A stretch of 64,000 nucleotides of DNA from Spirochaetota bacterium (GTDB lineage Bacteria; Spirochaetota; UBA12135; COTS27; JAFLEE01). The number at the start of each line of letters is the position of its first letter. Positions within the stretch are counted from its first letter, which is position 1. The notes under the pieces were generated by a model. The model was not told the DNA's origin, did no database searches, and saw only the letters and a list, made by a program, of their open reading frames with translations. This document shows positions 32,391-60,137 of the stretch, piece after piece. The stretch covers positions 1-64,000 of the forward strand of contig JAFLEE010000006.1 of NCBI GenBank assembly GCA_017302015.1, read 5' to 3'. The position numbers were made by a program, and so were the translations under genes.

Positions 32391-34190
32391 ATGCTGCAGC
32401 GCCTCTACCAGATCCTGGGCTCGCCCATCGCGCCGATCATCGCCGCCCTGGCATGGACCCTGCTGCTGGGGGCCTCGTATTCCTGGAATGCGGGCCGGGA
32501 GCGGGGCGCCGCGGTGGCGCTGGCCCGGCAAGAAGCACTGGGGAGTTTCCAGAAGGATCTCGTCTACCGCCGCTGGGCTTCTATGCACGGGGGCCTGTAC
32601 GTGCCCGCGACCTCGAACACCCCTCCCAACCCGTACCTGGCCAGGGTGGAATCCCGCGAGATCGTGGGGCCCCAGGGGCGGGTCTACACGCTGCTGAACC
32701 CGGCCTACATGACGCGGCAGGTGCACGAATTGGCCCGGGAACAATATGACAACCGCGGGCACATCACGAGCCTGCATCCGATCCGTCCCGAGAACCGCCC
32801 CGATCCGTGGGAAAGCAACGCCCTCCTGTGTTTCGAAACGGGCGCGGCGGAACGGAGCGAGGTGGCCCTCTTGGGCGGGGCGCGCTGGCTGCGCTTCATG
32901 CGGCCCCTCGTCACGGAGGCCTCCTGCCTCCGCTGCCATGCGGACCAGGGCTACCGCGCCGGCCAGATCCGGGGCGGCATCAGCGTTTCGGTCCCCATGC
33001 GCCCCTACGAGTCGATCGCCGAGGAGAATATCCGCGCGTCCCGGGTCATCCATCTCGGGGCTTGGGCGCCGGTGCTGGCCCTGTTCTTCGCGAGTTGGTT
33101 CACCGGCACGCGGCGCCAGCGCGATCAAGAGGTCGCGGCGCGGATCTTGATGCAGAGCGAGGGGAAGTTCCGCTCGTGGATCGAGAAGGCCCCGGAGGGC
33201 ATCCTCGTCATCGGTCCGGACGGCCGCATCACCGACGGGAACCCCGCCGCGGAATCGCTCACCGGCCTGGCGGTCGACGGGCTCCGCCGCCTCTCGGGCG
33301 CCTCCCTGATCCAGGAGCCCATGGGGAAGGCCCCGCGGGAAGGGGAATCCATCCACCTCCCCGAACGGCATCTCTTGCGGAAAAACGGCGCCGCGATGCC
33401 CGTCATGGTCGACCGGGTGCGCCTGGGCGACGACCATGAACTCTGGTTCCTGCGCGACCTCACCGAGCACCGCCGCCTGGAGCAGGACCTCGTGCACCGG
33501 GAAAAACTGGCGGCGGTGGGTTCCCTGGCCGGCGGCGTCGCCCACGAGTTCAATAACCTTCTCTCCGTCATCCGCCTCCAGGCCCAGCAGCTCCTCTCGT
33601 CGGCGCCCCTCCCCGTGGAACGCCAGCAGGCGCTCCTCGCGGAAGTGATCCAGCAGACGCGCCGCGGCGCCTCGATCACCTCCGGCATGCTCGCCATCTC
33701 GCGCCCCCCCAAGGGCAAGGTCGAGCCGTGCCGCCTGGAGTCGCTCCTCGACGAGGTCCTCGATTTCCAGGCCCCGGCCTTCGCCCAGGAGCGCATCGCG
33801 GTGGAGCGCGATTACCGTTCGACGCGGCCCATCATGGCCGACCGGGACCAGCTCGTCCAGGTCTTCCTCAATCTCACCATCAACGCGCGCCACGCCATGC
33901 GGGCGCGCGGCGAGGGAACCTTGCGCGTCTCCACCCGGGATTTCCCGGGCGAGGCGGGGGCCCTCATCGCCGATACGGGCATCGGCATGACGACCGCGAC
34001 CCAGGAAAAACTCTTCACGCCCTTCTTCACCACCAAGGGGGCCTACGCCCAGGACGGCCTGGGCATCCAGGGCACCGGGCTCGGGTTGGCCGTGAGCGCG
34101 CGGGTCGTGGCCCAGTTCGGGGGCCGCATCTCCGTGGAGAGCCGGGAAGGCGTCGGCACGACGTTCACCGTGACCTTCCCCATTGCCTAG
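32391..34190 (+). CDS. Sensor histidine kinase with periplasmic CxxCH (heme c-type, DUF3365-like) sensor domain, PAS, HisKA and HATPase
   Basis: 599 aa. The periplasmic region carries TEASCLRCHADQGYR (CXXCH), followed by a TM segment and a PAS region. The H-box reads AAVGSLAGGVAHEFNNLL. HATPase G-boxes are DTGIGM and GTGLGLAV. Confidence 0.8.
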   Translation: MLQRLYQILGSPIAPIIAALAWTLLLGASYSWNAGRERGAAVALARQEALGSFQKDLVYRRWASMHGGLYVPATSNTPPNPYLARVESREIVGPQGRVYTLLNPAYMTRQVHELAREQYDNRGHITSLHPIRPENRPDPWESNALLCFETGAAERSEVALLGGARWLRFMRPLVTEASCLRCHADQGYRAGQIRGGISVSVPMRPYESIAEENIRASRVIHLGAWAPVLALFFASWFTGTRRQRDQEVAARILMQSEGKFRSWIEKAPEGILVIGPDGRITDGNPAAESLTGLAVDGLRRLSGASLIQEPMGKAPREGESIHLPERHLLRKNGAAMPVMVDRVRLGDDHELWFLRDLTEHRRLEQDLVHREKLAAVGSLAGGVAHEFNNLLSVIRLQAQQLLSSAPLPVERQQALLAEVIQQTRRGASITSGMLAISRPPKGKVEPCRLESLLDEVLDFQAPAFAQERIAVERDYRSTRPIMADRDQLVQVFLNLTINARHAMRARGEGTLRVSTRDFPGEAGALIADTGIGMTTATQEKLFTPFFTTKGAYAQDGLGIQGTGLGLAVSARVVAQFGGRISVESREGVGTTFTVTFPIA

Positions 34191-37248: not shown

Positions 37249-38961
37249 TCATTTTTGGTTTCCGATCCTCCGGATCTCCGTCGCAACGCGGGAGGGGCCG
37301 GATTCCTCCGGCGCGGCGATGGCCCGGTCCATGCGGATTTTGAATTGCGCCACCAGGGCATTGAGTTCCTCGGCCTGGGAGGAGAGTTCTTCCGTCGCCG
37401 CGGCGGCCTCCTCGACGAGGCTCGAGTTCATCTGGGTATTCTGGTCGAGGGAGAGGATCGTCTTGTTGATCTGCTCCACCCCGTCCCATTGCTCGCGGCT
37501 GGCGGAGGCGATCTCGGCGATGAGATCCTTTACCTTGGTGACGGCGGCGTTGATCTCGCCGAGGCTGCCCCCCGCGCGCTTGGCCAGATCGGATCCGGCC
37601 TCGACCCTGCGGATGCTGTCGCCGATGAGGGCGGCGATCTCGCGGCTGGCCTCGTCGCTCCGTTGGGCGAGCTTGCGCACCTCGACGGCCACCACGGCGA
37701 ATCCGCGGCCCTGCTCGCCGGCCCGGGCGGCCTCGATGCTCGCGTTGAGCGCCAGGAGGTTGGTCTGGAAGGCGATCTGGTTCATCACTTCGATGATCTG
37801 GCGCATCTTCTGGCTGGACTGGGTGATGCCTTCCATGGCTTCGACGACTTCGCCGACGATGCCGACGCCTTCGCCGGCCTTCCCCGCGGCCTCGAGGCTC
37901 AGCGCATTGGCCTCCTGGGCGCCCTGGGTATTGCCCTTGATGCTCGACGACATCTCCTCCATGCTGGCGGCGGTTTCCTCCACCGAGGCGGCCTGGGCTT
38001 CGGTGCGGCGGGAAAGGTCTTGGTTGCCCTGGGCGAGTTGGGAGGAGGCCGCCCCCACCTGGCCCGAGGCGTCGCGGATCATGGCGAAGGTGTTCCCGAG
38101 TTTTTCCGCGCCCTCAACCAGGGCGCGGGCCATGACGCCGAACTCATCGCGGGAGCGGGAGCGCACGGCGGCGGTGAGGTCGCCCCGGGCCAGGGCGCCG
38201 GCGAAATGCACCGCGTCGTTGACCGTGGCCTGGATGGGGCGGAAGATCCAGGCGACCGCGGCGAAGATGAGGGCGATGATGGCCAGGGTCGCCAGGATGA
38301 CGAGCACGGTGCTACGCCGCATTTGCCGATCGACGTCGTGCATGGGCGCGAGGATCTCGAAGGCGCCGTGGCGTTCCCCCACCTTCCAATTCTCCATGGG
38401 GCCGCCGGTGATGTCGCGGCCGTCGTCCCGTCCCCAGAGCGCGCGGCTGGTGGCGGGGTCCCCGTGGCAGGCCATGCATTCGGCGGTGAGCTTGATGGAC
38501 CGGAAAATGCGGATGGCGTTGCGCTCCCGGTCCATCCCCCAGACCTGGTCGAGGTTCTCCCGTTCCATGCGGTTGAGCATGGCGAGTTCGAACGCGTCGG
38601 GTTCGTTCTCCGGGTTGCGGGGGCTGGTCTTGGGAACGCGGAAAATGTAGTTGCCCTCGTTGGTCCGCGCGCGCAACGTGTTCATGGCGGTGAGCACGGG
38701 CACGGCCTGGAGGATGCGGTATTTACGCCGTTCGGGGTCGGGATCCTGGATGGTGCGGAGGTCGGTGAGGATGCCCAGTTTGTATTTTTCTCCCATCTGG
38801 ATGCGGCTCTCCTCCGCGAGCGCGAGCAGGGCTTGGCCCTTCTCGAGTTTTTGCCGTTCGGCCTCTTTCCGCAAGTTCGTAAGGAAGACCGCCGCGAGGG
38901 TCGCCGAAAGCGAGATGAGGGCCAACCCGAGGATGAGGAAGATCTTCGAACGGAATTTCAT
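37249..38961 (-). CDS. Methyl-accepting chemotaxis protein with periplasmic CxxCH (DUF3365-like) sensor domain, HAMP and MCP signalling domain
   Basis: 570 aa. The periplasmic domain carries TAECMACHGDP (CXXCH). A TM segment and HAMP follow, then a conserved MCP hairpin region (…QTNLLALNASIEAARAGEQGRGFAVVAVEVRKLAQRS…). Confidence 0.85.
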   Translation of the reverse strand: MKFRSKIFLILGLALISLSATLAAVFLTNLRKEAERQKLEKGQALLALAEESRIQMGEKYKLGILTDLRTIQDPDPERRKYRILQAVPVLTAMNTLRARTNEGNYIFRVPKTSPRNPENEPDAFELAMLNRMERENLDQVWGMDRERNAIRIFRSIKLTAECMACHGDPATSRALWGRDDGRDITGGPMENWKVGERHGAFEILAPMHDVDRQMRRSTVLVILATLAIIALIFAAVAWIFRPIQATVNDAVHFAGALARGDLTAAVRSRSRDEFGVMARALVEGAEKLGNTFAMIRDASGQVGAASSQLAQGNQDLSRRTEAQAASVEETAASMEEMSSSIKGNTQGAQEANALSLEAAGKAGEGVGIVGEVVEAMEGITQSSQKMRQIIEVMNQIAFQTNLLALNASIEAARAGEQGRGFAVVAVEVRKLAQRSDEASREIAALIGDSIRRVEAGSDLAKRAGGSLGEINAAVTKVKDLIAEIASASREQWDGVEQINKTILSLDQNTQMNSSLVEEAAAATEELSSQAEELNALVAQFKIRMDRAIAAPEESGPSRVATEIRRIGNQK

Positions 38962-51101: not shown

Positions 51102-51554
51102 ATGACCACGGCGCAACATGATCCGTCGCTCCTCTTTCCCCCGTCCGTGGAGATCCGGAACTCGCCCATCGAGGGCCGCGGCGTCTTCGCGCGGGCGCGC
51201 ATCGCCGCCGGGGTGAGGCTCTTGGAATACACCGGGGAGGTCATCCTCTGGGCCGATGCGGCCCAGGACGAGGAGCACTTCTACGATTTCGAATTGGACG
51301 AGTCCCGCGTCCTGCGACCCCGGGAGAACGAGTGCACGGCGATGTATGTGAACCATTCCTGCGATCCCAATTGCGAGACCCACCAGGAGGGCGACCGCCT
51401 CTTCTACGAGACCCTCCGGGAGATCGCCCCGGGGGAGGAGCTCTCCGTCAATTATTTCGTTCAGATCGAGGGGGCGACCCTCGAGGAAGGGCTGCGGGAT
51501 TACGCCTGCCGCTGCGGTTCCCCGGCGTGCAAGGGGACGATGCTCGACGTCTGA
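51102..51554 (+). CDS. SET domain protein (putative protein-lysine methyltransferase)
   Basis: 150 aa with the core SET motifs GRGVFA, ELDESRVL and NHSCDPNC, plus a post-SET Cys cluster CRCGSPACKG. Confidence 0.8.
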   Translation: MTTAQHDPSLLFPPSVEIRNSPIEGRGVFARARIAAGVRLLEYTGEVILWADAAQDEEHFYDFELDESRVLRPRENECTAMYVNHSCDPNCETHQEGDRLFYETLREIAPGEELSVNYFVQIEGATLEEGLRDYACRCGSPACKGTMLDV

Positions 51555-52646: not shown

Positions 52647-54209
52647 TCAACGGTACGTCAGCCTGCAATGGGGGAACTTTTCCCGGATCGCGTCGGCCCC
52701 GGCGCGGGTGACCGAGGTCTCGATCAGCGTCATTTCTTCCATCTTGGCGGCGCGGAGCAGGAAATCCTTGATGCCGCCATCGGTGATGCCGGGGCAATTG
52801 CTGAAGAAGAAGTGCGGTTGCACGGCGAAGAAGGGCGCCACATTCGTCAAAAAATGGTCGGTGACCAAACCGCTGGTGACGCCGAAGAAGCGGAGGCCCG
52901 GATGGTTGGTGCAAAGGTAGAGGTAGGAGGCATCGGTGACCGCCGTGCCGAAGAACTCGATGCGCGGTGCCTGGGGGCGCTGGAGGCCCGCCTTCATGTG
53001 GCGGTTGGAAACCTCCGCGCCGAAGACGCGCAAGACGTCGTTGGATTCCATGCGCACGATGCATTGGGGCTGGAGGCTTCGGATGCGCTGGAGGGCCGCG
53101 GGGGAAAGGGGGTTCTCCGAGAGGTCGAGTTCGGAAAATCGCGCCGGCACCAGGCCGAGGATCGTGGCGAGGCAATCGCCGAGGAGGTTGCCGTCGAGAA
53201 CCAAGGTGCGGAGGCCGGGGTTCGCCCACAGGGCGGATGGGACTCCCTCGCAGGTGAGGAGGCACTCGTTGACCCCATTGCCGGAGCGCTTGAGGGTTTC
53301 CAGCCGGTTCAAGGATGCCACGCCGAGGGCGAAGGAGCGGTCGGAGGTGAACGTGCGCGAGAAGTCGAGGTAGCGCAGGTCCTTGTTCCGGGCGGTGACC
53401 GCGAGGATGACCGCATCGGAGAGATGGGCGCATTGGCTGAGATCGAGGGCGACGAGCTTCGTGTGGTTCTGGAGCCCGCCCAAGAAGCCCGCTTCGGAAA
53501 TCGCGGCGCCCGCGTGGAGGTCGAGTGCGGCGAGGTTGGTCATGCGCGCCAAGAGTTCGAGGGCGAAACGGTCGGTCAATCGGGCGTTACGCAGGCGGAA
53601 GGCCCGCAGGGTTTCCGGCGAGGGAATGGCGGCGAGGAGTTCCTCGTCGCCGAAGGGGCGATCGCCCAGGTCGACGTATTGGAGTTCGCCGCGGTCGAGG
53701 AAGGTCTTGGCGAGGTAGGCCGCGCTGTCCAGGGCGTTGAGGTCCTGGGCGGCCTTGCAGGCCTCGAGTTCCCGCGCGAGGCTCCCCGCGGACGCGGCCA
53801 GCGCGTCGAGCGTGGGCGCCGACCGCTCGGCGCGGGCGACCGTTTTCCCGGATTCCGCCTCGAGGAGCCGGGCGGCGAATTGGAAGGCGCCGTTCGACCG
53901 GGACAGGCTGGCTTGGAGGACGAAATTGGCCCCCATGAGTCTCCCGAAATAGGGCGCCCGGGAGGACGCCGGCGCGTTCGATGCGCGGTCCTCCAGGGAC
54001 CGCCACAGGGGTTCGAAGCCCCCACGGGGGTCCAGGGGCCGTATTTTATTTCCGGAAAGGAACTCCCCGCGCAAGCCCTCGCGGAACACGGACGCCTGGG
54101 CCCCGGGAAGATCCGCGGTGGATTGGATCCAGAGGATGGCCGAGGCATTTTGGCCGAAGGCGGCGGCGATGCAGAACGCCATCCCCATCGCGGTGCTTTT
54201 TGAGAACAT
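52647..54209 (-). CDS. Secreted leucine-rich repeat (LRR) protein
   Basis: Signal peptide MFSKSTAMGMAFCIAAAFG from ATG 54209. The central region has repeated L..L.L..C..L.D... units (…LAALDLHAGAAISEAGF…LVALDLSQCAHLSDAVI…LRYLDFSRT…LRTLVLDGNLLGD…LDLSENPLS…). Confidence 0.55.
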   Translation of the reverse strand: MFSKSTAMGMAFCIAAAFGQNASAILWIQSTADLPGAQASVFREGLRGEFLSGNKIRPLDPRGGFEPLWRSLEDRASNAPASSRAPYFGRLMGANFVLQASLSRSNGAFQFAARLLEAESGKTVARAERSAPTLDALAASAGSLARELEACKAAQDLNALDSAAYLAKTFLDRGELQYVDLGDRPFGDEELLAAIPSPETLRAFRLRNARLTDRFALELLARMTNLAALDLHAGAAISEAGFLGGLQNHTKLVALDLSQCAHLSDAVILAVTARNKDLRYLDFSRTFTSDRSFALGVASLNRLETLKRSGNGVNECLLTCEGVPSALWANPGLRTLVLDGNLLGDCLATILGLVPARFSELDLSENPLSPAALQRIRSLQPQCIVRMESNDVLRVFGAEVSNRHMKAGLQRPQAPRIEFFGTAVTDASYLYLCTNHPGLRFFGVTSGLVTDHFLTNVAPFFAVQPHFFFSNCPGITDGGIKDFLLRAAKMEEMTLIETSVTRAGADAIREKFPHCRLTYR

Positions 54210-54445
54210 CAGGTCGGATCCTTCGGTGGAATCGCCGCGTCTCGCCAAAAAGAGGTTGGGAAATTGTACGATGGCGGAATAGACCGGCTCCCTGGGGATG
54301 GGGAACCGCTTTCCGCGGCCTCGGACACGATTTCCGCGAAGACGAATCAACGCTTCCCGCGAAGGCCAGAAATTGACAGCGGGGCCGGTGGACCGTATGC
54401 TCTCCAGCGGGCCCGATCCGGGTGGAATCCCCAGGAATGATCTAG

Positions 54446-54973
54446 ATGAAAAACAGAATGAGTCTGACGACCTTCTCGCTCTTTTCCCTTCTTTTTTTCG
54501 CGTCAGCGGATTACCTGGTCGCCGGCGACTATTCCAAGGCCTACGAATACCTCCAGAAGGACCCCAAGAAGCACGAGGCCGAATTGCGCCTGATCCTCCC
54601 GACCCTCGATCCGGGGGATCGGATGGCCCTGTACGGTTTCGCCCAAAAAGATATCCTCCCGGGTTATCTGGTGAATTGGCTCCTCGGGTTGGGCATCGGT
54701 TCCTTCATGCAGGGCGACCCACTGGGCGGCGCCATCGGCTTGACGGGCGACCTCCTCTCCGTGGGCGCGATGGCGACCGGTGTCGCGCTCCTCACGCCCC
54801 CCTACGGCGGCGGAAATTTGACGGCGGCGGCGGTCTGCGCCAGCGCCGGCTTGGTGGTCTACCTCGTCTCCAAGGTCTACCAGATGTTCCGCCCGATCTA
54901 TTTCGTGCAGCGCTATAATGACCAATTGGCCAGGTTCCTCCTCAGCGAGGGAAAATTCCAATGGCGATTCTGA
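54446..54973 (+). CDS. Hypothetical membrane protein
   Basis: 175 aa with an N-terminal signal/TM and three further hydrophobic Gly-rich segments. AT-rich 5' end. Confidence 0.45.
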   Translation: MKNRMSLTTFSLFSLLFFASADYLVAGDYSKAYEYLQKDPKKHEAELRLILPTLDPGDRMALYGFAQKDILPGYLVNWLLGLGIGSFMQGDPLGGAIGLTGDLLSVGAMATGVALLTPPYGGGNLTAAAVCASAGLVVYLVSKVYQMFRPIYFVQRYNDQLARFLLSEGKFQWRF

Positions 54974-55052
54974 GGGCGCCATCCGCCGCGCTCGGGGACG
55001 AGCGCTCGTGCCGCCGCGGAAAGTCGCGCCGAAGCCATCGAGGAGGTCCGGC

Positions 55053-55211
55053 ATGCTCGGGGAAAAGCTTCTAAAATCGGGGATCATCACCCAGGCCCAA
55101 TTGGAGGAATGCCTCGCGGAGCAAGCGGCCTCCGGGAAGCGGATCGGGGAACTCCTCGTGGCCAAGGGCTACGCGACCCAAGCCCAGATAGATGCGGCGC
55201 TGGCGAAATAG
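55053..55211 (+). CDS. Minimal stand-alone MshEN-type (T2SS-E N-terminal, c-di-GMP-binding-like) domain protein
   Basis: 52 aa: MLGEKLLKSGIITQAQLEECLAEQ-AASGK-RIGELLVAKGYATQAQIDAALAK. This is two copies of the 24-residue (R/K)LGxxLLxxGhhxxxxLxxxLxxQ motif separated by a 5-residue spacer. A perfect AGGAGG RBS lies 7 nt upstream of the ATG. Confidence 0.55.
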   Translation: MLGEKLLKSGIITQAQLEECLAEQAASGKRIGELLVAKGYATQAQIDAALAK

Positions 55212-55214
55212 CCT

Positions 55215-55838
55215 TCAGCCCGCGATGCGGCAGAGGCAATAGATGAAGGCTTGTAGGGTTCCCGACGGCGTCTGGTGGGCCTCGCGCTGGGATTCCACCA
55301 GGCGGAACTCCGGACCGAATTCCCGGTGGGGCGCGTCGGGTTCATAGCGCATGACGGGCAGGCCGGAGCATTTGGCCGGGCCGTCCCCGGCGAAGGTCGC
55401 CACCAAGACGTAGCCGCCGGCGCGCACGGAGCGCGCGACTTGGGCGACGTAGCGCCGACGGTCCCCCTCGCTGGTGAGGAAGTGGAAGACGGCCCGGTCG
55501 TGCCAGACGTCGAAGGCATCGGCGGAAAGATCGGCTTCCAGGATATCCGCGCATCACCATTTCACGTCCTCGACCCGGTGCGCCAAGCGCGCCCGTGAGA
55601 CCGTGAGCGCCTCGTCCGCGAGGTCGAGAACGGTCAGGTCCGTGAACCCGGCCGCGGGGAGGCTGTCGACCCCCGTCGAAGCGCCCGCGCCCACATCGAT
55701 GACTGCGGCACGGGGCGAAGGGGCCACCCTGCGGATCAAGTCGAGGGGGAGGCGCGCTTCGGGCTGGTACCAACTGACTTCATCGGCTTTTTTGTGTTGG
55801 TAGACGCCTTGCCAATGCTTCGCTTGCTCGCCGGACAT
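55215..55838 (-). pseudogene. Class I SAM-dependent methyltransferase interrupted by an in-frame TGA
   Basis: A single frame encodes ...VIDVGAGASTGVDSLPAAGFTDLTVLDLADEALTVSRARLAHRVEDVKW-[TGA at 55554-55556]-CADILEADLSADAFDVWHDRAVFHFLTSEGDRRRYVAQVARSVRAGGYVLVATF... This is a continuous MTase fold (motif I DVGAGAS, motif II/III). The stop falls where the MTase fold continues uninterrupted. Confidence 0.6.
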
Positions 55839-55864
55839 GGGGGGGGGCTTTCGTCTGGGGAGGT

Positions 55865-57142
55865 TCAGTCCTTGAACTTCGAGAGCACGATGCAGGCGTT
55901 ATGTCCGCCGAAACCGAAGCTATTGGAGAGGACGTGGTCGACGGAGATCTCCCGGGCGCCGGGGGAGACGATGTCGAGGTCGATGCGGGGGTCCTTCTCG
56001 TGCAGGTGGATCGTCGGGTGCACGAGGCTCTCGTTGAGGGCTTGGAGGCAGGCGATGGCCTCGATGCCGCCGGCCGCGCCGATGAGGTGGCCCGTCATCG
56101 ACTTGGTGCTGTGCACGGGGATCGAGGCCGCCGCGGCGCCGAAGGCCTGGTGGATGCCGATGCATTCGGCCAGGTCGCCGATGGGCGTGGAGGTGCCGTG
56201 GGCGTTGATGAGGCCGATGGCCTCGGGGGCGAGGCGGGCGTCCTCGAGGGCGAAGCGCATGGCGAGGGCGGAGCCGCGGCCCTCGGGGTGGGGCGCCACG
56301 AGGTCGTGGGCGTCGCAGGACATGCCGAAGCCGGTGAGTTCCCCGTAGATGCGCGCGCCCCGGGCCTTGGCGTGGCCGAGTTCCTCGAGGCAGAGCACGC
56401 CCGCGCCCTCGCCCAGCACGAACCCGTCGCGGTCCTTGTCGAAGGGGCGGCTGGCCGTCTCGGGATCCACCGAGCGCCGGGAGAGGGCGAAGATGGCGTT
56501 GAACCCGGCGAAGCCCGCGGTATTCACCACGGCCTCCGAGCCCCCGGCGAAGATCACGTCGGCGAGGCCCGTGCGGATGAACGAGGCGGCCGTTCCGAGG
56601 GAATGGTTGGAGGTGGCGCAGGCCGAATTGATGGAGAAATTGGGCCCTTGGAGCCCCCGTTCCTTGGCGAAAAACCCGGAGAGGGTGTTGGGGATCACCC
56701 CGACGACGTAGAAGGGCGAGGTATGGTCCATGCCCTTGGTTTCGATCGTCTTGAAGGTCTCGTAGGTGAACCCGACCCCGGCGTCGCCGGTGCCGATGAT
56801 GGCCCCGTAGCGGTGGGGCGCCTTGGCGATGGCTTCGGCGTCGAGGTGGGAATCGTGGAAGGCTTCGGTGGCCGCCACCATCCCGAGGTGGACGAAGCGG
56901 TCCAGGCGCCGCATCATCTTCTTGGGGAGGTAGGGGGTCATATCCTCGGGGAGGTCGACCTCGCCCCCCACCTTGACGGGGAAATTCTCGGGGAGCGGGG
57001 TGCGCTGCACCCGGCGTACGCCGTTCTTTCCGATGGCGAGGTTGGCCCAGTACTCGGGGACCGAGCGGCCGAGGGGGTTGATGGTGCCGATTCCGGTGAT
57101 GACGACGCGCACGCTGGGGTTGATTCGATTCGATGGGGTCAT
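55865..57142 (-). CDS. fabF: 3-oxoacyl-[ACP] synthase II
   Basis: 425 aa. Active-site Cys region SINSACATSNHSLG. His motifs AHGTSTPIGD and SMTGHLIGAAG. C-terminus FGFGGHNACIVLSKF. Confidence 0.9.
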   Translation of the reverse strand: MTPSNRINPSVRVVITGIGTINPLGRSVPEYWANLAIGKNGVRRVQRTPLPENFPVKVGGEVDLPEDMTPYLPKKMMRRLDRFVHLGMVAATEAFHDSHLDAEAIAKAPHRYGAIIGTGDAGVGFTYETFKTIETKGMDHTSPFYVVGVIPNTLSGFFAKERGLQGPNFSINSACATSNHSLGTAASFIRTGLADVIFAGGSEAVVNTAGFAGFNAIFALSRRSVDPETASRPFDKDRDGFVLGEGAGVLCLEELGHAKARGARIYGELTGFGMSCDAHDLVAPHPEGRGSALAMRFALEDARLAPEAIGLINAHGTSTPIGDLAECIGIHQAFGAAAASIPVHSTKSMTGHLIGAAGGIEAIACLQALNESLVHPTIHLHEKDPRIDLDIVSPGAREISVDHVLSNSFGFGGHNACIVLSKFKD

Positions 57143-57330: not shown

Positions 57331-58098
57331 TCAGAGGTCGGCCGCCAGGCGGAAGCCCACCGTGCTCCGCTCGAACCAGGGGGTGAGGGAGTTGCGCGCG
57401 GCGCATCGGCAAAGATCCCCGCTGCAGCCCCAGGATCCGCCCCGCACGATGCGCTCGTCGCCCCTGCCGGGGCCCATCGGATCGGTGAGGGGGGCGCGGG
57501 GGTAGGCTCCGAGGAAGTCGTGGCACCATTCCCAAACGTTTCCGTGCAGGTCGTACAAACCCCAGGGGTTGGCGGGATAGCGGCGCACGACGGTCGTTCC
57601 TTCCAAAGCCGGGCCCTTCTTCCCTTTCCCATAGGGGGCGCCGCCGTCGAAATTGGCGCGCCGCGAGTCGAGGGAGGGCCCGAAATGGAAAGCGGATCGG
57701 GTTCCCGCGCGGCAGGCGTATTCCCATTCGGCCTCGGTGGGCAGGCGAAACTCGCGGCCCACGCGGTCGGAGAGGGTTTGGCAGAACTCGAGGGCGGCGG
57801 CCCAACTCACCTGCTCCACGGGCTTCTCGCCGTCTTTGAAGAACGAGGGGTTGCGCCCCATGACGGCCTTGAACAAGGCTTGGGTGACGGGGGTCTCCCC
57901 GATCAGGAACGGCGTGGTCAGGGTGACCCGATGGCGGTGTTCGCCCCGATCGCGTTTTTTCTCGGTCTCCGGCGAACCCATCCAATAGGTGCCGGCCGGC
58001 AGTGCGATGAGTTTGAAGGGAACGCCGCGGACCTTGAAGAGCTGCGGCTGAAGCCGCGCCTTGGGCGCCGCAGGTTTTTTTTTCTTGGGGACGGCCAT
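57331..58098 (-). CDS. Formylglycine-generating enzyme family protein (sulfatase-modifying factor, SUMF1-type)
   Basis: Contains YWMGS, RLPTEAEWEYACRAG, GNVWEWC and RGGSW, the hallmark FGE-sulfatase blocks. No signal peptide. Confidence 0.85.
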   Translation of the reverse strand: MAVPKKKKPAAPKARLQPQLFKVRGVPFKLIALPAGTYWMGSPETEKKRDRGEHRHRVTLTTPFLIGETPVTQALFKAVMGRNPSFFKDGEKPVEQVSWAAALEFCQTLSDRVGREFRLPTEAEWEYACRAGTRSAFHFGPSLDSRRANFDGGAPYGKGKKGPALEGTTVVRRYPANPWGLYDLHGNVWEWCHDFLGAYPRAPLTDPMGPGRGDERIVRGGSWGCSGDLCRCAARNSLTPWFERSTVGFRLAADL

Positions 58099-58254
58099 GG
58101 GTTCCTCTGGGGTGCCTCCCGCGCGCAGAGCGAGCTCGTGCGCGGCGGGACCGGGGATTCGGACACTTTACACCCGCGGCGCGCGGAATACAAATGGCAA
58201 GTCGCTGGTATTTTAACGGCCCGTCGCGAGCCGTCGATGGGTCCGCGCGGCCGC

Positions 58255-60039
58255 TCAGCGACCCCGCCGCCATTCGACGTCCAGGCGGAATCGGCGGACG
58301 AGGACGGGCTTCCAGGCGAAGGAAAAATCGCAATGGTCCGCGAGGCCATGGCGCCACGAGGCGTTCTCGGCCGGGATCTCGATGCGCGCCTTTTTCCACA
58401 CGGCGGTCCCCGTGGTATAGAGATCGGCCACGATGCCGTACTGGCCCCCGACCCGGGATTCGGCGTCGGGCCTCAGGGAATGGCAGAGCACCTGGAATCG
58501 CTCCTCGCCCTCGTCGAGGTACTCGAAAGACAAGGCCGCCCGGTGCCAGGCGCCGCGCCAGGCCGCGCAAGATTCCTCGGAGACGGCTAGGCCCAGTTTG
58601 TCGCCGGTGTTCCATGCTTGATCGCTTTGGGCGTCCGCCCGGCGCGATCCGTGGACCACCACCTCCAAGCCGGCGCCGGGGGCCTCTAGGCGCGCGGTTC
58701 GCAGCGGGGGCAGACTGGCGTCCAAAGCCTGCTTCGCCGATTGGGCGCGGGCGAGGGTGGCGAGGGCCGGGGCCCCTTCTCCCCGGCCCAATTGGCCCGC
58801 GGCCTGGTCGAGGAGCGCCTCGAAATCGGCGGCTTCCAGGCCGCAACGGCGGAAGGTTTCCCGGGCGAGGCGGAATTGGTGGAGGCGCTCCGGCAGGGCC
58901 AGGAGGGAGGGCTCTACGGCAGGGAGGCCCTTGAAGGCGCGGGCGTGCCGCTGGGTGGACTCGAGGTCGGCGAGGCCGCGTTCCAGCGTGGGTTCGATGC
59001 CGCTCGATTCGGTGTAGTCGTTCCACGTGGCGATGAATGCGATCCGGAAGAAATCCCGGTGATCCACCGCGAAGCGCCACATGCCCTCGAGGAGGGCGCC
59101 CTCGTCGCGCCCCAGGGCGTGGAGGGTCCGACCCCACCCCGCGCAGGGGCGATTGTCTTCTCCCGGGGTGACCACGGTCATGGGGTACGGGTAGAGCCCG
59201 GGTTCGGCGGCCTGTTCCTTTCGGATATGCTCGAGGTAGGCCAGCGCGTCTGCCGTCGTGGCGTGATGGTCCCAGTCGGGATGGGCCGCGTCGCGTGGGC
59301 GCAGGCGCGGCGGGATCCATGGCTGGAAGCCGACCCGCCGCTGGCGCCATTCCTGGAGAGTGGCGAGGGATTGAAAGACGGGATTTTCGCCCTCCATGCG
59401 GCCGGTGAGGAGGGACCAGTAATAATAGAGGGGGCGGGGCGAGAGCGCCTGATCGAATGCCGCCATGGCGTCGAAGAGGGGGATGGAGGTGGCCCATGCG
59501 AACACCAGGGGGGCGCCGTCGAGGCGCGGCCAGGTGGGGGCCTCCAGTTCAGCGTAGAAGGCGGGGGCGGCGAGTCGGAACGCGGCCAGCCTCGAAGCGG
59601 GGTCGGCCTTGGCCTGGGCGCGCTTGTTATTGAATGCGGCGAAGACGTGGAAGCCGTGCCGGGCGGCGATGGGCTTCATCGCCGCGAGGGCGGGGGTCTG
59701 GGAGTCTTCGATGAGGAAGGCGTCGATGCCGGCGAGTTTTGCGGAGAGGACGGCGTACTCCAAGTAGAGCGGATCGAGGGAGGAATAGGCGCCGACGCGG
59801 GGATGGGTCAGCGAGGCGAGGCCGCGCCGCCCGCCCTCGTCGACGAGATCGGATTGGTACAGGAACAAGCGGTTGGAGAACGAGGGGCTGAGGGCGGGGC
59901 GGCCCCGGGAACTCCAGACCCCGACGCGCCCGTCCAACGCGCGGGAGTAGCGGGGGTCGTGGAAATCGGCGATCACCCAGCGCGGGACCTGGGCGCCGGC
60001 GAGGAGCGAGGAAAGCAGGAGGATGAGGAAGATGCGCAT
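58255..60039 (-). CDS. Hypothetical secreted protein
   Basis: 594 aa from ATG 60039 with signal MRIFLILLLSSLLAGAQ. No recognisable catalytic motif. Confidence 0.4.
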   Translation of the reverse strand: MRIFLILLLSSLLAGAQVPRWVIADFHDPRYSRALDGRVGVWSSRGRPALSPSFSNRLFLYQSDLVDEGGRRGLASLTHPRVGAYSSLDPLYLEYAVLSAKLAGIDAFLIEDSQTPALAAMKPIAARHGFHVFAAFNNKRAQAKADPASRLAAFRLAAPAFYAELEAPTWPRLDGAPLVFAWATSIPLFDAMAAFDQALSPRPLYYYWSLLTGRMEGENPVFQSLATLQEWRQRRVGFQPWIPPRLRPRDAAHPDWDHHATTADALAYLEHIRKEQAAEPGLYPYPMTVVTPGEDNRPCAGWGRTLHALGRDEGALLEGMWRFAVDHRDFFRIAFIATWNDYTESSGIEPTLERGLADLESTQRHARAFKGLPAVEPSLLALPERLHQFRLARETFRRCGLEAADFEALLDQAAGQLGRGEGAPALATLARAQSAKQALDASLPPLRTARLEAPGAGLEVVVHGSRRADAQSDQAWNTGDKLGLAVSEESCAAWRGAWHRAALSFEYLDEGEERFQVLCHSLRPDAESRVGGQYGIVADLYTTGTAVWKKARIEIPAENASWRHGLADHCDFSFAWKPVLVRRFRLDVEWRRGR

Positions 60040-60060
60040 GGGAGGCGGGGGCCCTGTCAT

Positions 60061-60096
60061 AAAAAAACCCGGCCCAAAGGGCCGGGTTTCGTTTTC
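60061..60096 (-). terminator. Strong rho-independent (bidirectional) terminator downstream of the RRM gene
   Basis: AAAAAAA-CCCGGCCC-AAA-GGGCCGGG-TTTCGTTTTC. Perfect 8-bp GC stem, 3-nt loop, A-run on one side and T-run on the other. Lies 42 nt past the RRM stop codon. Confidence 0.8.
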
Positions 60097-60137
60097 GGTT
60101 ATGGAAAACATGCCCCCGGGAATCCGGGGACGTTTCG

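Follow-up and report, generated by a model that had tools for sequence, protein, structure and literature searches.

[quoted passage not shown] A short open reading frame in a Spirochaetota MAG raises the question of whether the N-terminal helical part of this domain (MshEN_N) also exists as a protein in its own right and, if so, whether such a protein could still bind the messenger and act on anything. The reading frame (mini-ORF, encoding the mini-protein) was analyzed within a 64-kb stretch of DNA, referred to below as the window.

A 52-codon gene with its own ribosome-binding site

The initial annotation described a 52-residue open reading frame preceded by a textbook AGGAGG ribosome-binding site, and both are present (Table 1). 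Read directly from the sequence, the ATG occupies positions 55053-55055 and the TAG positions 55209-55211, and the product is the 52-residue protein MLGEKLLKSGIITQAQLEECLAEQAASGKRIGELLVAKGYATQAQIDAALAK. The GC3 of the mini-ORF (0.77) is typical for genes of this 66%-GC window. Three nucleotides past the stop codon lies the end of a convergent methyltransferase gene, and no ATPase-like or glycosyltransferase-like sequence lies 3' of the mini-ORF.

A 97-residue reading frame in the same frame begins at ATG 54918. It was rejected as the true start because it would overlap the upstream gene and its extension has the Arg-rich character of a shadow sequence, because conservation with an 81%-identical orthologous locus (L001) begins only at GGAGG, and because nearly all relatives start at MLG or within 2-3 residues of it.

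Table 1. Features of the mini-MshEN_N locus (positions in the window)
Feature	Position	Strand	Remarks
Sigma-70-like promoter candidate TTGACA-17-TATGCT	54373-54401	+	upstream of P13-like gene; consensus match only
P13-porin-like membrane protein gene, 175 aa	54446-54973	+	Pfam Borrelia_P13, 2.1e-12; ends 79 bp 5' of mini-ORF
Shine-Dalgarno sequence AGGAGG	55041-55046	+	6 nt 5' of ATG
Mini-MshEN_N gene	55053-55211	+	52 codons plus TAG; NCBI locus J0L75_03110, protein MBN8215599.1, "hypothetical protein"
Motif I	55053-55124	+	aa 1-24, MLGEKLLKSGIITQAQLEECLAEQ; equivalent to VcMshE 9-32 (HMMER alignments to 5htl_A); initiator Met in place of Arg at position 1
Spacer AASGK	55125-55139	+	aa 25-29, 5 residues
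Motif II	55140-55208	+	aa 30-52, RIGELLVAKGYATQAQIDAALAK; equivalent to VcMshE 38-60; 23 residues, without the terminal Gln (Q61)

Domain identity and fold

The mini-ORF encodes one MshEN_N module with nothing fused to it, a 52-residue four-helix bundle, and to this extent the proposal of an isolated MshEN domain was correct. The mini-protein scores 63.8 bits (E=8.9e-18) against NCBIfam NF053729, a 53-position model of the MshE-related c-di-GMP-binding motif with a cutoff of 38 bits, and residues 2-52 align to profile positions 2-52. The relatives P0158, P0193 and P0057 likewise pass this cutoff. Searches of the PDB by phmmer with the mini-ORF alone recover PilF (3e-8) and the N-terminus of V. 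cholerae MshE (5htl_A, residues 10-55; 2e-6), and a profile of the family recovers PilF at 2e-28, V. cholerae MshE residues 10-59 at 5e-16 and PilB at 2e-13.

The AlphaFold2 model, built with the family alignment, is of high confidence (pLDDT 95.1) and consists of four helices (residues 2-9, 14-27, 31-38 and 43-51). Its best Foldseek match in the PDB is c-di-GMP-bound MshE (5htl_B; TMq 0.93, rmsd 0.7 Å over 51 columns, E 0.0075), followed by complexes of PilF GSPII-B with c-di-GMP (TMq ~0.9); the top matches overall have TMq values of 0.90-0.93 and rmsd values of 0.7-1.1 Å, and complexes of PilB-N with PilZ are also among the matches. The mini-protein ends after helix 4 and has no C-terminal alpha/beta T2SSE_N1 subdomain. 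No T2SSE ATPase domain follows it, which sets it apart from the secretion ATPases of the MshE/PilB/GspE type, and it is not a PilZ receptor either: there is no PilZ match in Pfam at E values up to 1, and the model is all-helical.

A scan with Pfam PF05157, which the initial annotation had proposed as a check, came out negative for the mini-ORF and for every one of the 53 family members scanned, even at E values up to 10. The same model also fails on the multi-repeat MshEN_N proteins tested, including ones with 6-7 repeats, so the scan is an invalid test for MshEN_N. Evidently PF05157 does not capture the N-terminal helical subdomain, and its failure here means only that the mini-protein is not a full MshEN domain.

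Other Pfam models do respond to the family. Matches to FumaraseC_C and DUF4388 (PF14332) were considered and set aside as sub-threshold cross-matches to similar helical hairpins; these two models and DUF2949 stay below their cutoffs for single units and rise above them for multi-repeat MshEN_N proteins (the multi-repeat relative P0003, for example, scores 39.3 bits against DUF2949, PF11165, with a cutoff of 24.2). DUF2949, an uncharacterized family with a 56-position model, thus cross-matches MshEN_N units; it is matched weakly by 5 of the 53 family members, and not by the mini-ORF itself at E values up to 1. A literature search found nothing on DUF2949, which possibly represents a further group of small proteins resembling MshEN_N.

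A conserved family of mini-proteins

The mini-ORF is a real gene under purifying selection. The orthologous locus L001 encodes a protein of 52 residues that is 81% identical to the mini-protein, on a metagenomic contig with entirely different neighbors. DNA similarity between the two loci is limited to the stretch from the ribosome-binding site through the stop codon, switching on at GGAGG (the first conserved block) and off at the stop. The reading frames differ by 28 synonymous and 15 non-synonymous changes (pS 0.76, pN 0.13).

Conservation of the tiny reading frame had been named as a test of the initial annotation, and it extends well beyond this pair. A profile search yielded 96 clusters at 90% identity, of which more than 40, from uncultivated bacteria, contain proteins of 50-55 residues. 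These start with MLG (or MAMLG or MALLG), end 1-3 residues past the last motif Leu, and carry the source labels "hypothetical protein" or, in IMG, "PilB". Among 1.84 billion representative proteins there were 4138 matches at E values up to 0.001; the top single-unit matches are mini-proteins of 51-54 residues, outranked by multi-repeat proteins, in which the scores of the units add up. Many copies of the mini-gene lie within long contigs (up to 604 kb), and they are therefore not fragments created at contig ends. A metagenome scan that returned 80 loci added only two further mini-genes; most of the other loci apparently lie within longer reading frames, and two are cut at contig ends. No natural single-MshEN_N protein was found in the literature searched, and the mini-protein is one of a family of dozens. 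No relatives were found in viral contigs, which speaks against an origin as a phage nucleotide sponge.

Two members of the family have features of their own. A 51-residue relative encoded upstream of mutL (locus L028, 5001-5153, + strand) has Ser in place of the otherwise invariant motif I Gln (…LAESKK…) and may be a naturally occurring variant that does not bind c-di-GMP or has a different specificity. At L001 (2-592, + strand), the mini-gene lies in a stretch of lower GC content just 3' of a toxin-antitoxin pair that resembles HigB/HigA as judged by eye; the 114-residue protein there has no Pfam match, and a Lys-rich reading frame of 103 residues comes after the mini-gene. These surroundings hint at a mobile or island context.

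The MshEN_N motifs and the published ligand-contact positions

Residue numbers of the mini-protein are converted to those of V. cholerae MshE (VcMshE) by adding 8. On this basis, G3 and G32 correspond to G11 and G40, Q24 to Q32, and R30 to R38. The hydrophobic residues L17, L21 and I31 correspond to L25, L29 and L39, and L2, I46 and L50 to L10, L54 and L58, so that both of the triangular hydrophobic clusters that characterize MshEN_N are in place. G10 and G39 form turns. In the 45 core members of the family, G3, L6, I12, Q16, L21, Q24 and G32 are invariant, and L2, L17 and G39 are nearly so; Gly at position 3 of both motifs is thus found in 45 of 45 members. The invariant G3, L21, Q24 and G32 and the near-invariant L2 and L17 coincide with published ligand contacts (PMC5013675).

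The initial annotation had described two 24-residue motifs with a canonical 5-residue spacer, and this holds for motif I and the spacer; motif II is one residue short, and position 1 of motif I is a Met. Of 24 members that match the strict pattern, 17 have a spacer of 5 residues, six a spacer of 6 and one a spacer of 7. Published work allows R, K or L at position 1 of a motif and finds higher affinity with a hydrophobic side chain (PMC11731258). R30 of motif II fits this rule. The initiator Met of motif I is outside both published sets and is hydrophobic like L; family members have M, L, P or Q at this position and in no case R or K. Met aminopeptidase specificity is such that the initiator Met is expected to be retained, residue 2 being Leu.

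A second systematic departure from the known motif is at the C-terminus. The alignment of Leu, Gly and Gln residues that had been anticipated for an MshEN module is borne out by G3, G32, both Leu clusters and Q24, and breaks down at position 24 of motif II, where the protein ends at position 23 of the motif and the Gln equivalent to Q61 is absent. This is a property of the family, as 22 of the 24 pattern-matched members lack this Gln.

Evidence from isolated subdomains and mutants

Studies of MshE and PilF indicate what such a protein might be expected to do. MshEN_N is characterized by 1:1 binding of monomeric c-di-GMP, with Kd values from nM to low µM, and by a Gln at position 24 of each motif that hydrogen-bonds phosphate and the ribose 2'-OH. 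The excised VcMshEN_N (residues 1-62) binds c-di-GMP by itself with a Kd of 0.35 µM (PMC5013675), the isolated N-subdomain PilF159-221 has a Kd of 54 nM (PMC11731258), and an engineered PilF9-65 has a Kd of 0.7 µM (PMC12002112). In MshE, the backbone NH groups of G11 and G40 bind guanine, with G11L and G40I abolishing or weakening binding, and Q32 contacts c-di-GMP phosphate and ribose (PMC5013675). Q24 of the mini-protein is the equivalent of this described ligand contact, and a role in holding the ligand accounts better for its invariance than a role in folding. Residues that precede motif I are inhibitory, since their deletion leads to a 16-fold higher affinity (PMC12002112); a protein that starts exactly at position 1 of the motif, as the mini-protein does, should therefore be favorable for binding. 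One Leu of the second cluster is Ile in the mini-protein; in PilF9-65, a Leu to Ile exchange at the L54/L58 positions lowers affinity just 2.4-fold (PMC12002112).

Other features of the mini-protein point the other way. Q61A weakens VcMshEN about 12-fold (PMC5013675), PilF Q218E is 77-fold weaker and yet still binds at 460 nM (PMC11731258), and R62Q, at the position equivalent to the terminal Gln, was among the changes made to regain binding in a reconstruction of PilF GSPII-A (PMC12002112). By analogy with these mutants, the loss of the motif II Gln should hurt, at an expected cost of 12- to 77-fold in affinity. The VcMshEN basic N-terminal patch (K5, R7, K8 and R9), which is described as aiding binding, has no counterpart in the mini-protein, whose net charge is about 0 by our own count.

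Taken together, homology and the published work on isolated subdomains make it likely that the mini-protein binds c-di-GMP, probably with an affinity in the sub-µM to low-µM range.

Genomic context

The small membrane protein gene that the initial annotation placed upstream of the mini-ORF is indeed there, and its product is P13-porin-like. This protein scores 1.1e-12 and 48 bits against NCBIfam P13_porin (equivalog cutoff 100); in this 66%-GC Spirochaetota MAG, it is a distant member of the Borrelia P13 family with an extra N-terminal region. The two genes had been suggested to be co-transcribed. Upstream of the P13-like gene lies the sole promoter-like site in positions 54200-55600 (10/12 matches; shuffles, mean 0.2), and no terminator-like hairpin was found between the P13-like gene and the mini-ORF. 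From the sequence, a two-gene transcript is therefore plausible; the pairing itself recurs only in a near-identical relative (contig L003) and in no other family member examined.

The initial annotation also called for a search for T2SS/T4P genes and other c-di-GMP effectors. None turned up in the window: its approximately 45 genes include no GGDEF, EAL, HD-GYP, PilZ or T2SS/T4P gene, its six frames contain no second MshEN_N unit, and an Rfam scan of positions 53500-56500 found no c-di-GMP riboswitch, just two chance snoRNA-like matches. With no pilus, secretion or c-di-GMP-turnover genes in the window, no partner can be inferred from it. Nor does any gene of these kinds, PilZ included, adjoin one of the homologs examined, and context thus offers no independent tie to c-di-GMP. 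Homologs of the mini-gene occupy at least seven distinct neighborhoods, namely (1) P13-like and methyltransferase genes, (2) HigA-like and unknown genes, (3) GAF-SpoIIE/MoxR/FadB and aldehyde dehydrogenase genes, (4) GAF-SpoIIE/MoxR and a VWA gene, (5) Ser/Thr kinases, (6) MBL-fold and TetR-efflux genes, and (7) MutL, and no partner gene is common to them. Within four of the closer clusters only (loci L010-L023, e.g. L010 759-6159 and L022 2944-6168), the mini-gene always comes after genes for a GAF-SpoIIE (PP2C) phosphatase and a MoxR-type AAA+ protein, with a FadB-like gene intervening in some loci and absent in L022 and L023. This recurrence may be plain synteny or a weak functional link.

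Several other features of the window were recorded. Compared with its intact 207-residue counterpart in L003, the convergent SAM-methyltransferase gene (55215-55838, - strand) has an in-frame nonsense change from CGA to TGA and is split by it into reading frames of 94 and 70 residues. The same TGA occurs in an independent assembly (L004) and is therefore probably genuine, a strain polymorphism or pseudogene, and not an artifact of assembly. Synteny with L003 is lost just past fabF, where the window (57331-60111, - strand) has an FGE-sulfatase-type gene and a 618-residue reading frame without a Pfam match, and L003 (10063-10374) instead encodes a 103-residue RRM_1 protein; the two resume with GDSL-lipase-like and GH39 genes past the break. 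A histidine kinase (32391-34190, + strand) and a methyl-accepting chemotaxis protein (37249-38961, - strand), encoded about 3 kb apart, both have a Tll0287-like sensor domain and may sense a shared signal. Finally, positions 51102-51554 (+ strand) encode a 150-residue bacterial SET-domain protein (PF00856, 1.7e-19).

Proposed function and alternative explanations

The reading that we prefer, with a probability of roughly 0.6, is that the mini-ORF is a genuine gene whose product, a minimal MshEN_N standing by itself, binds one c-di-GMP and, in its ligand-bound form, acts in trans. By analogy with MshE, the two tandem half-motifs would jointly hold one extended c-di-GMP molecule on the surface of the bundle. 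The backbone amides of G3/E4 and G32/E33 would form hydrogen bonds with the Hoogsteen edges of the guanines, the two Leu clusters (L17, L21 and I31; L2, I46 and L50) would stack beneath the bases, with M1 and R30 capping them from the opposite side, and Q24 would hydrogen-bond to one phosphate and one ribose. Because the mini-protein carries no output domain, any action of its ligand-bound form would have to be in trans, and we infer a trans-acting role on this basis. One possibility is that the mini-protein docks onto a target as a small adaptor, with the exposed c-di-GMP face and the incomplete second half-site possibly being completed by the partner; alternatively, it might merely sequester c-di-GMP. 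A broader and distinctly tentative extension of the adaptor model is that proteins of 50-55 residues form a widespread class of free-standing c-di-GMP receptors in which the start at motif position 1 is combined with a functional truncation of motif II, the target completing the site in trans so that the mini-protein together with the messenger would serve as a diffusible "molecular glue" adaptor. On this view, few natural receptor proteins for second messengers would be as small.

The sequestration alternative, in which the mini-protein binds the messenger without any partner, sets a threshold and competes with other receptors as a buffer or sink, is unlikely, though it has several points in its favor. 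The seven contexts contain no conserved neighbor or operon partner, the strictly or almost strictly conserved positions of the 45 members are mostly ligand contacts, turns and core residues with no obvious extra surface for a partner, and isolated subdomains bind at nM to µM affinity. However, the truncated second half-site suggests a lower affinity than that of the full domains with which a buffer would have to compete, and viral contigs, the typical home of nucleotide sponges, contain no relatives. The adaptor role is slightly favored over buffering because a truncated half-site would make a poor sink.

A somewhat less probable explanation is that the mini-protein is a degenerate MshEN_N fold that no longer binds c-di-GMP and serves as a protein-interaction module, for example as a microprotein decoy of a PilB/GspE-type ATPase or of another MshEN N-terminus. 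There are precedents for degenerate, non-binding MshEN domains in XpsE (PMC5013675) and PilF GSPII-A (PMC12002112), and the PilB-N/PilZ complexes among the structural matches illustrate that MshEN-type N-termini can bind proteins; the missing terminal Gln of motif II and the lack of R or K at position 1 of motif I would also fit. Against this, 7 of the 8 positions mutated in the non-binding XpsE are intact in the mini-protein, the invariance of G3, G32 and Q24 in 45 members is hard to explain without a ligand, and the score on the curated c-di-GMP-motif model is far over its cutoff.

The possibility that the mini-ORF is non-functional, either a chance reading frame or the decayed 5' remnant of a gene for an MshEN-ATPase or MshEN-glycosyltransferase, is effectively refuted by conservation. 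The reading frame is very short, annotated as hypothetical and without a Pfam match above threshold, and the nonsense mutation in the neighboring methyltransferase gene indicates some local decay. Nevertheless, length, start and stop are conserved over dozens of clusters and seven contexts, substitutions are strongly synonymous, the strong ribosome-binding site is conserved, the sequence downstream of the stop holds no trace of a lost enzymatic domain before the convergent gene, and the AlphaFold2 model is a confident and complete fold. A relationship to the C-terminal helical domain of fumarase C rather than to MshEN is refuted by relative scores: PF10415 (FumaraseC_C) is the top Pfam match in 52 of 53 members (best E 2e-6) and fumarase/aspartase C-termini are among the Foldseek matches (TMq ~0.75), but all single-unit PF10415 scores fall below the 32.5-bit cutoff (21.7 bits for the mini-protein), the Foldseek E values are >1 compared with 0.0075 for 5htl_B (TMq 0.93), and the sequence matches to MshE and PilF are better by 10 to 20 orders of magnitude.

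Relationship to known systems

The closest structural counterpart is the MshEN_N of V. cholerae MshE (PDB 5HTL; Wang et al. 2016, PMC5013675), which has the same four-helix fold at 37% identity, two motifs with a 5-residue spacer, and the same Gly, Leu-cluster and first-Gln positions. MshE is a T4P ATPase in which MshEN_N forms the N-terminus and T2SSE_N1 comes next, whereas the mini-protein comprises MshEN_N alone; the initiator Met takes the place of R9, the chain stops short of Q61, and no basic N-terminal tail is present. The GSPII-B domain of Thermus thermophilus PilF (PDB 8PDK, 8PE0; PMC11731258) is 41-45% identical to the mini-protein (TMq ~0.9) and has non-Arg residues at the first positions of its motifs; its K167L variant demonstrates that a hydrophobic side chain can stack there. 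Unlike the mini-protein, it is part of an ATPase with three GSPII domains and keeps both Gln residues, and the C-terminal subdomain of PilF provides an Asp contact that a stand-alone mini-protein cannot. In the 2016 architecture table, the sole MshEN_N-only protein besides various fusions is a tandem (MshEN_N)2 (PMC5013675). This protein, Cyanothece cce_1044 (Supplementary Table 4, PMC5013675), likewise consists of MshEN_N only and has no enzymatic output domain, but it has two tandem modules instead of one; it is uncharacterized, and the comparison is one of architecture.

With respect to function, the mini-protein may work similarly to single-domain PilZ receptors, although it is not a member of that group: PilZ is a beta-barrel, and its RxxxR and DxSxxG motifs are unrelated. 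We take these receptors (e.g. MapZ, P. aeruginosa) to be a functional analogy, as small c-di-GMP receptors without an output domain that act in trans.

Implications

The MshEN_N domain itself is well known, and a curated NCBIfam model exists for it; what appears to be new is the minimal free-standing architecture, together with a truncation of motif II that runs through the family. Should c-di-GMP binding be absent, the mini-protein is simply a small helical protein of the ordinary kind. If the mini-protein does bind, the 53-residue core occurs in nature as a protein of its own, and the module would prove to be an autonomous receptor, beyond the laboratory truncations described above. Why the last Gln is lost throughout the family is a specific and testable structural question, and the mini-protein would provide a 52-residue, chemically synthesizable scaffold for studying or sensing c-di-GMP. 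The family would also add an overlooked class of receptors to c-di-GMP censuses, one whose mini-genes are missed entirely by Pfam-based annotation.
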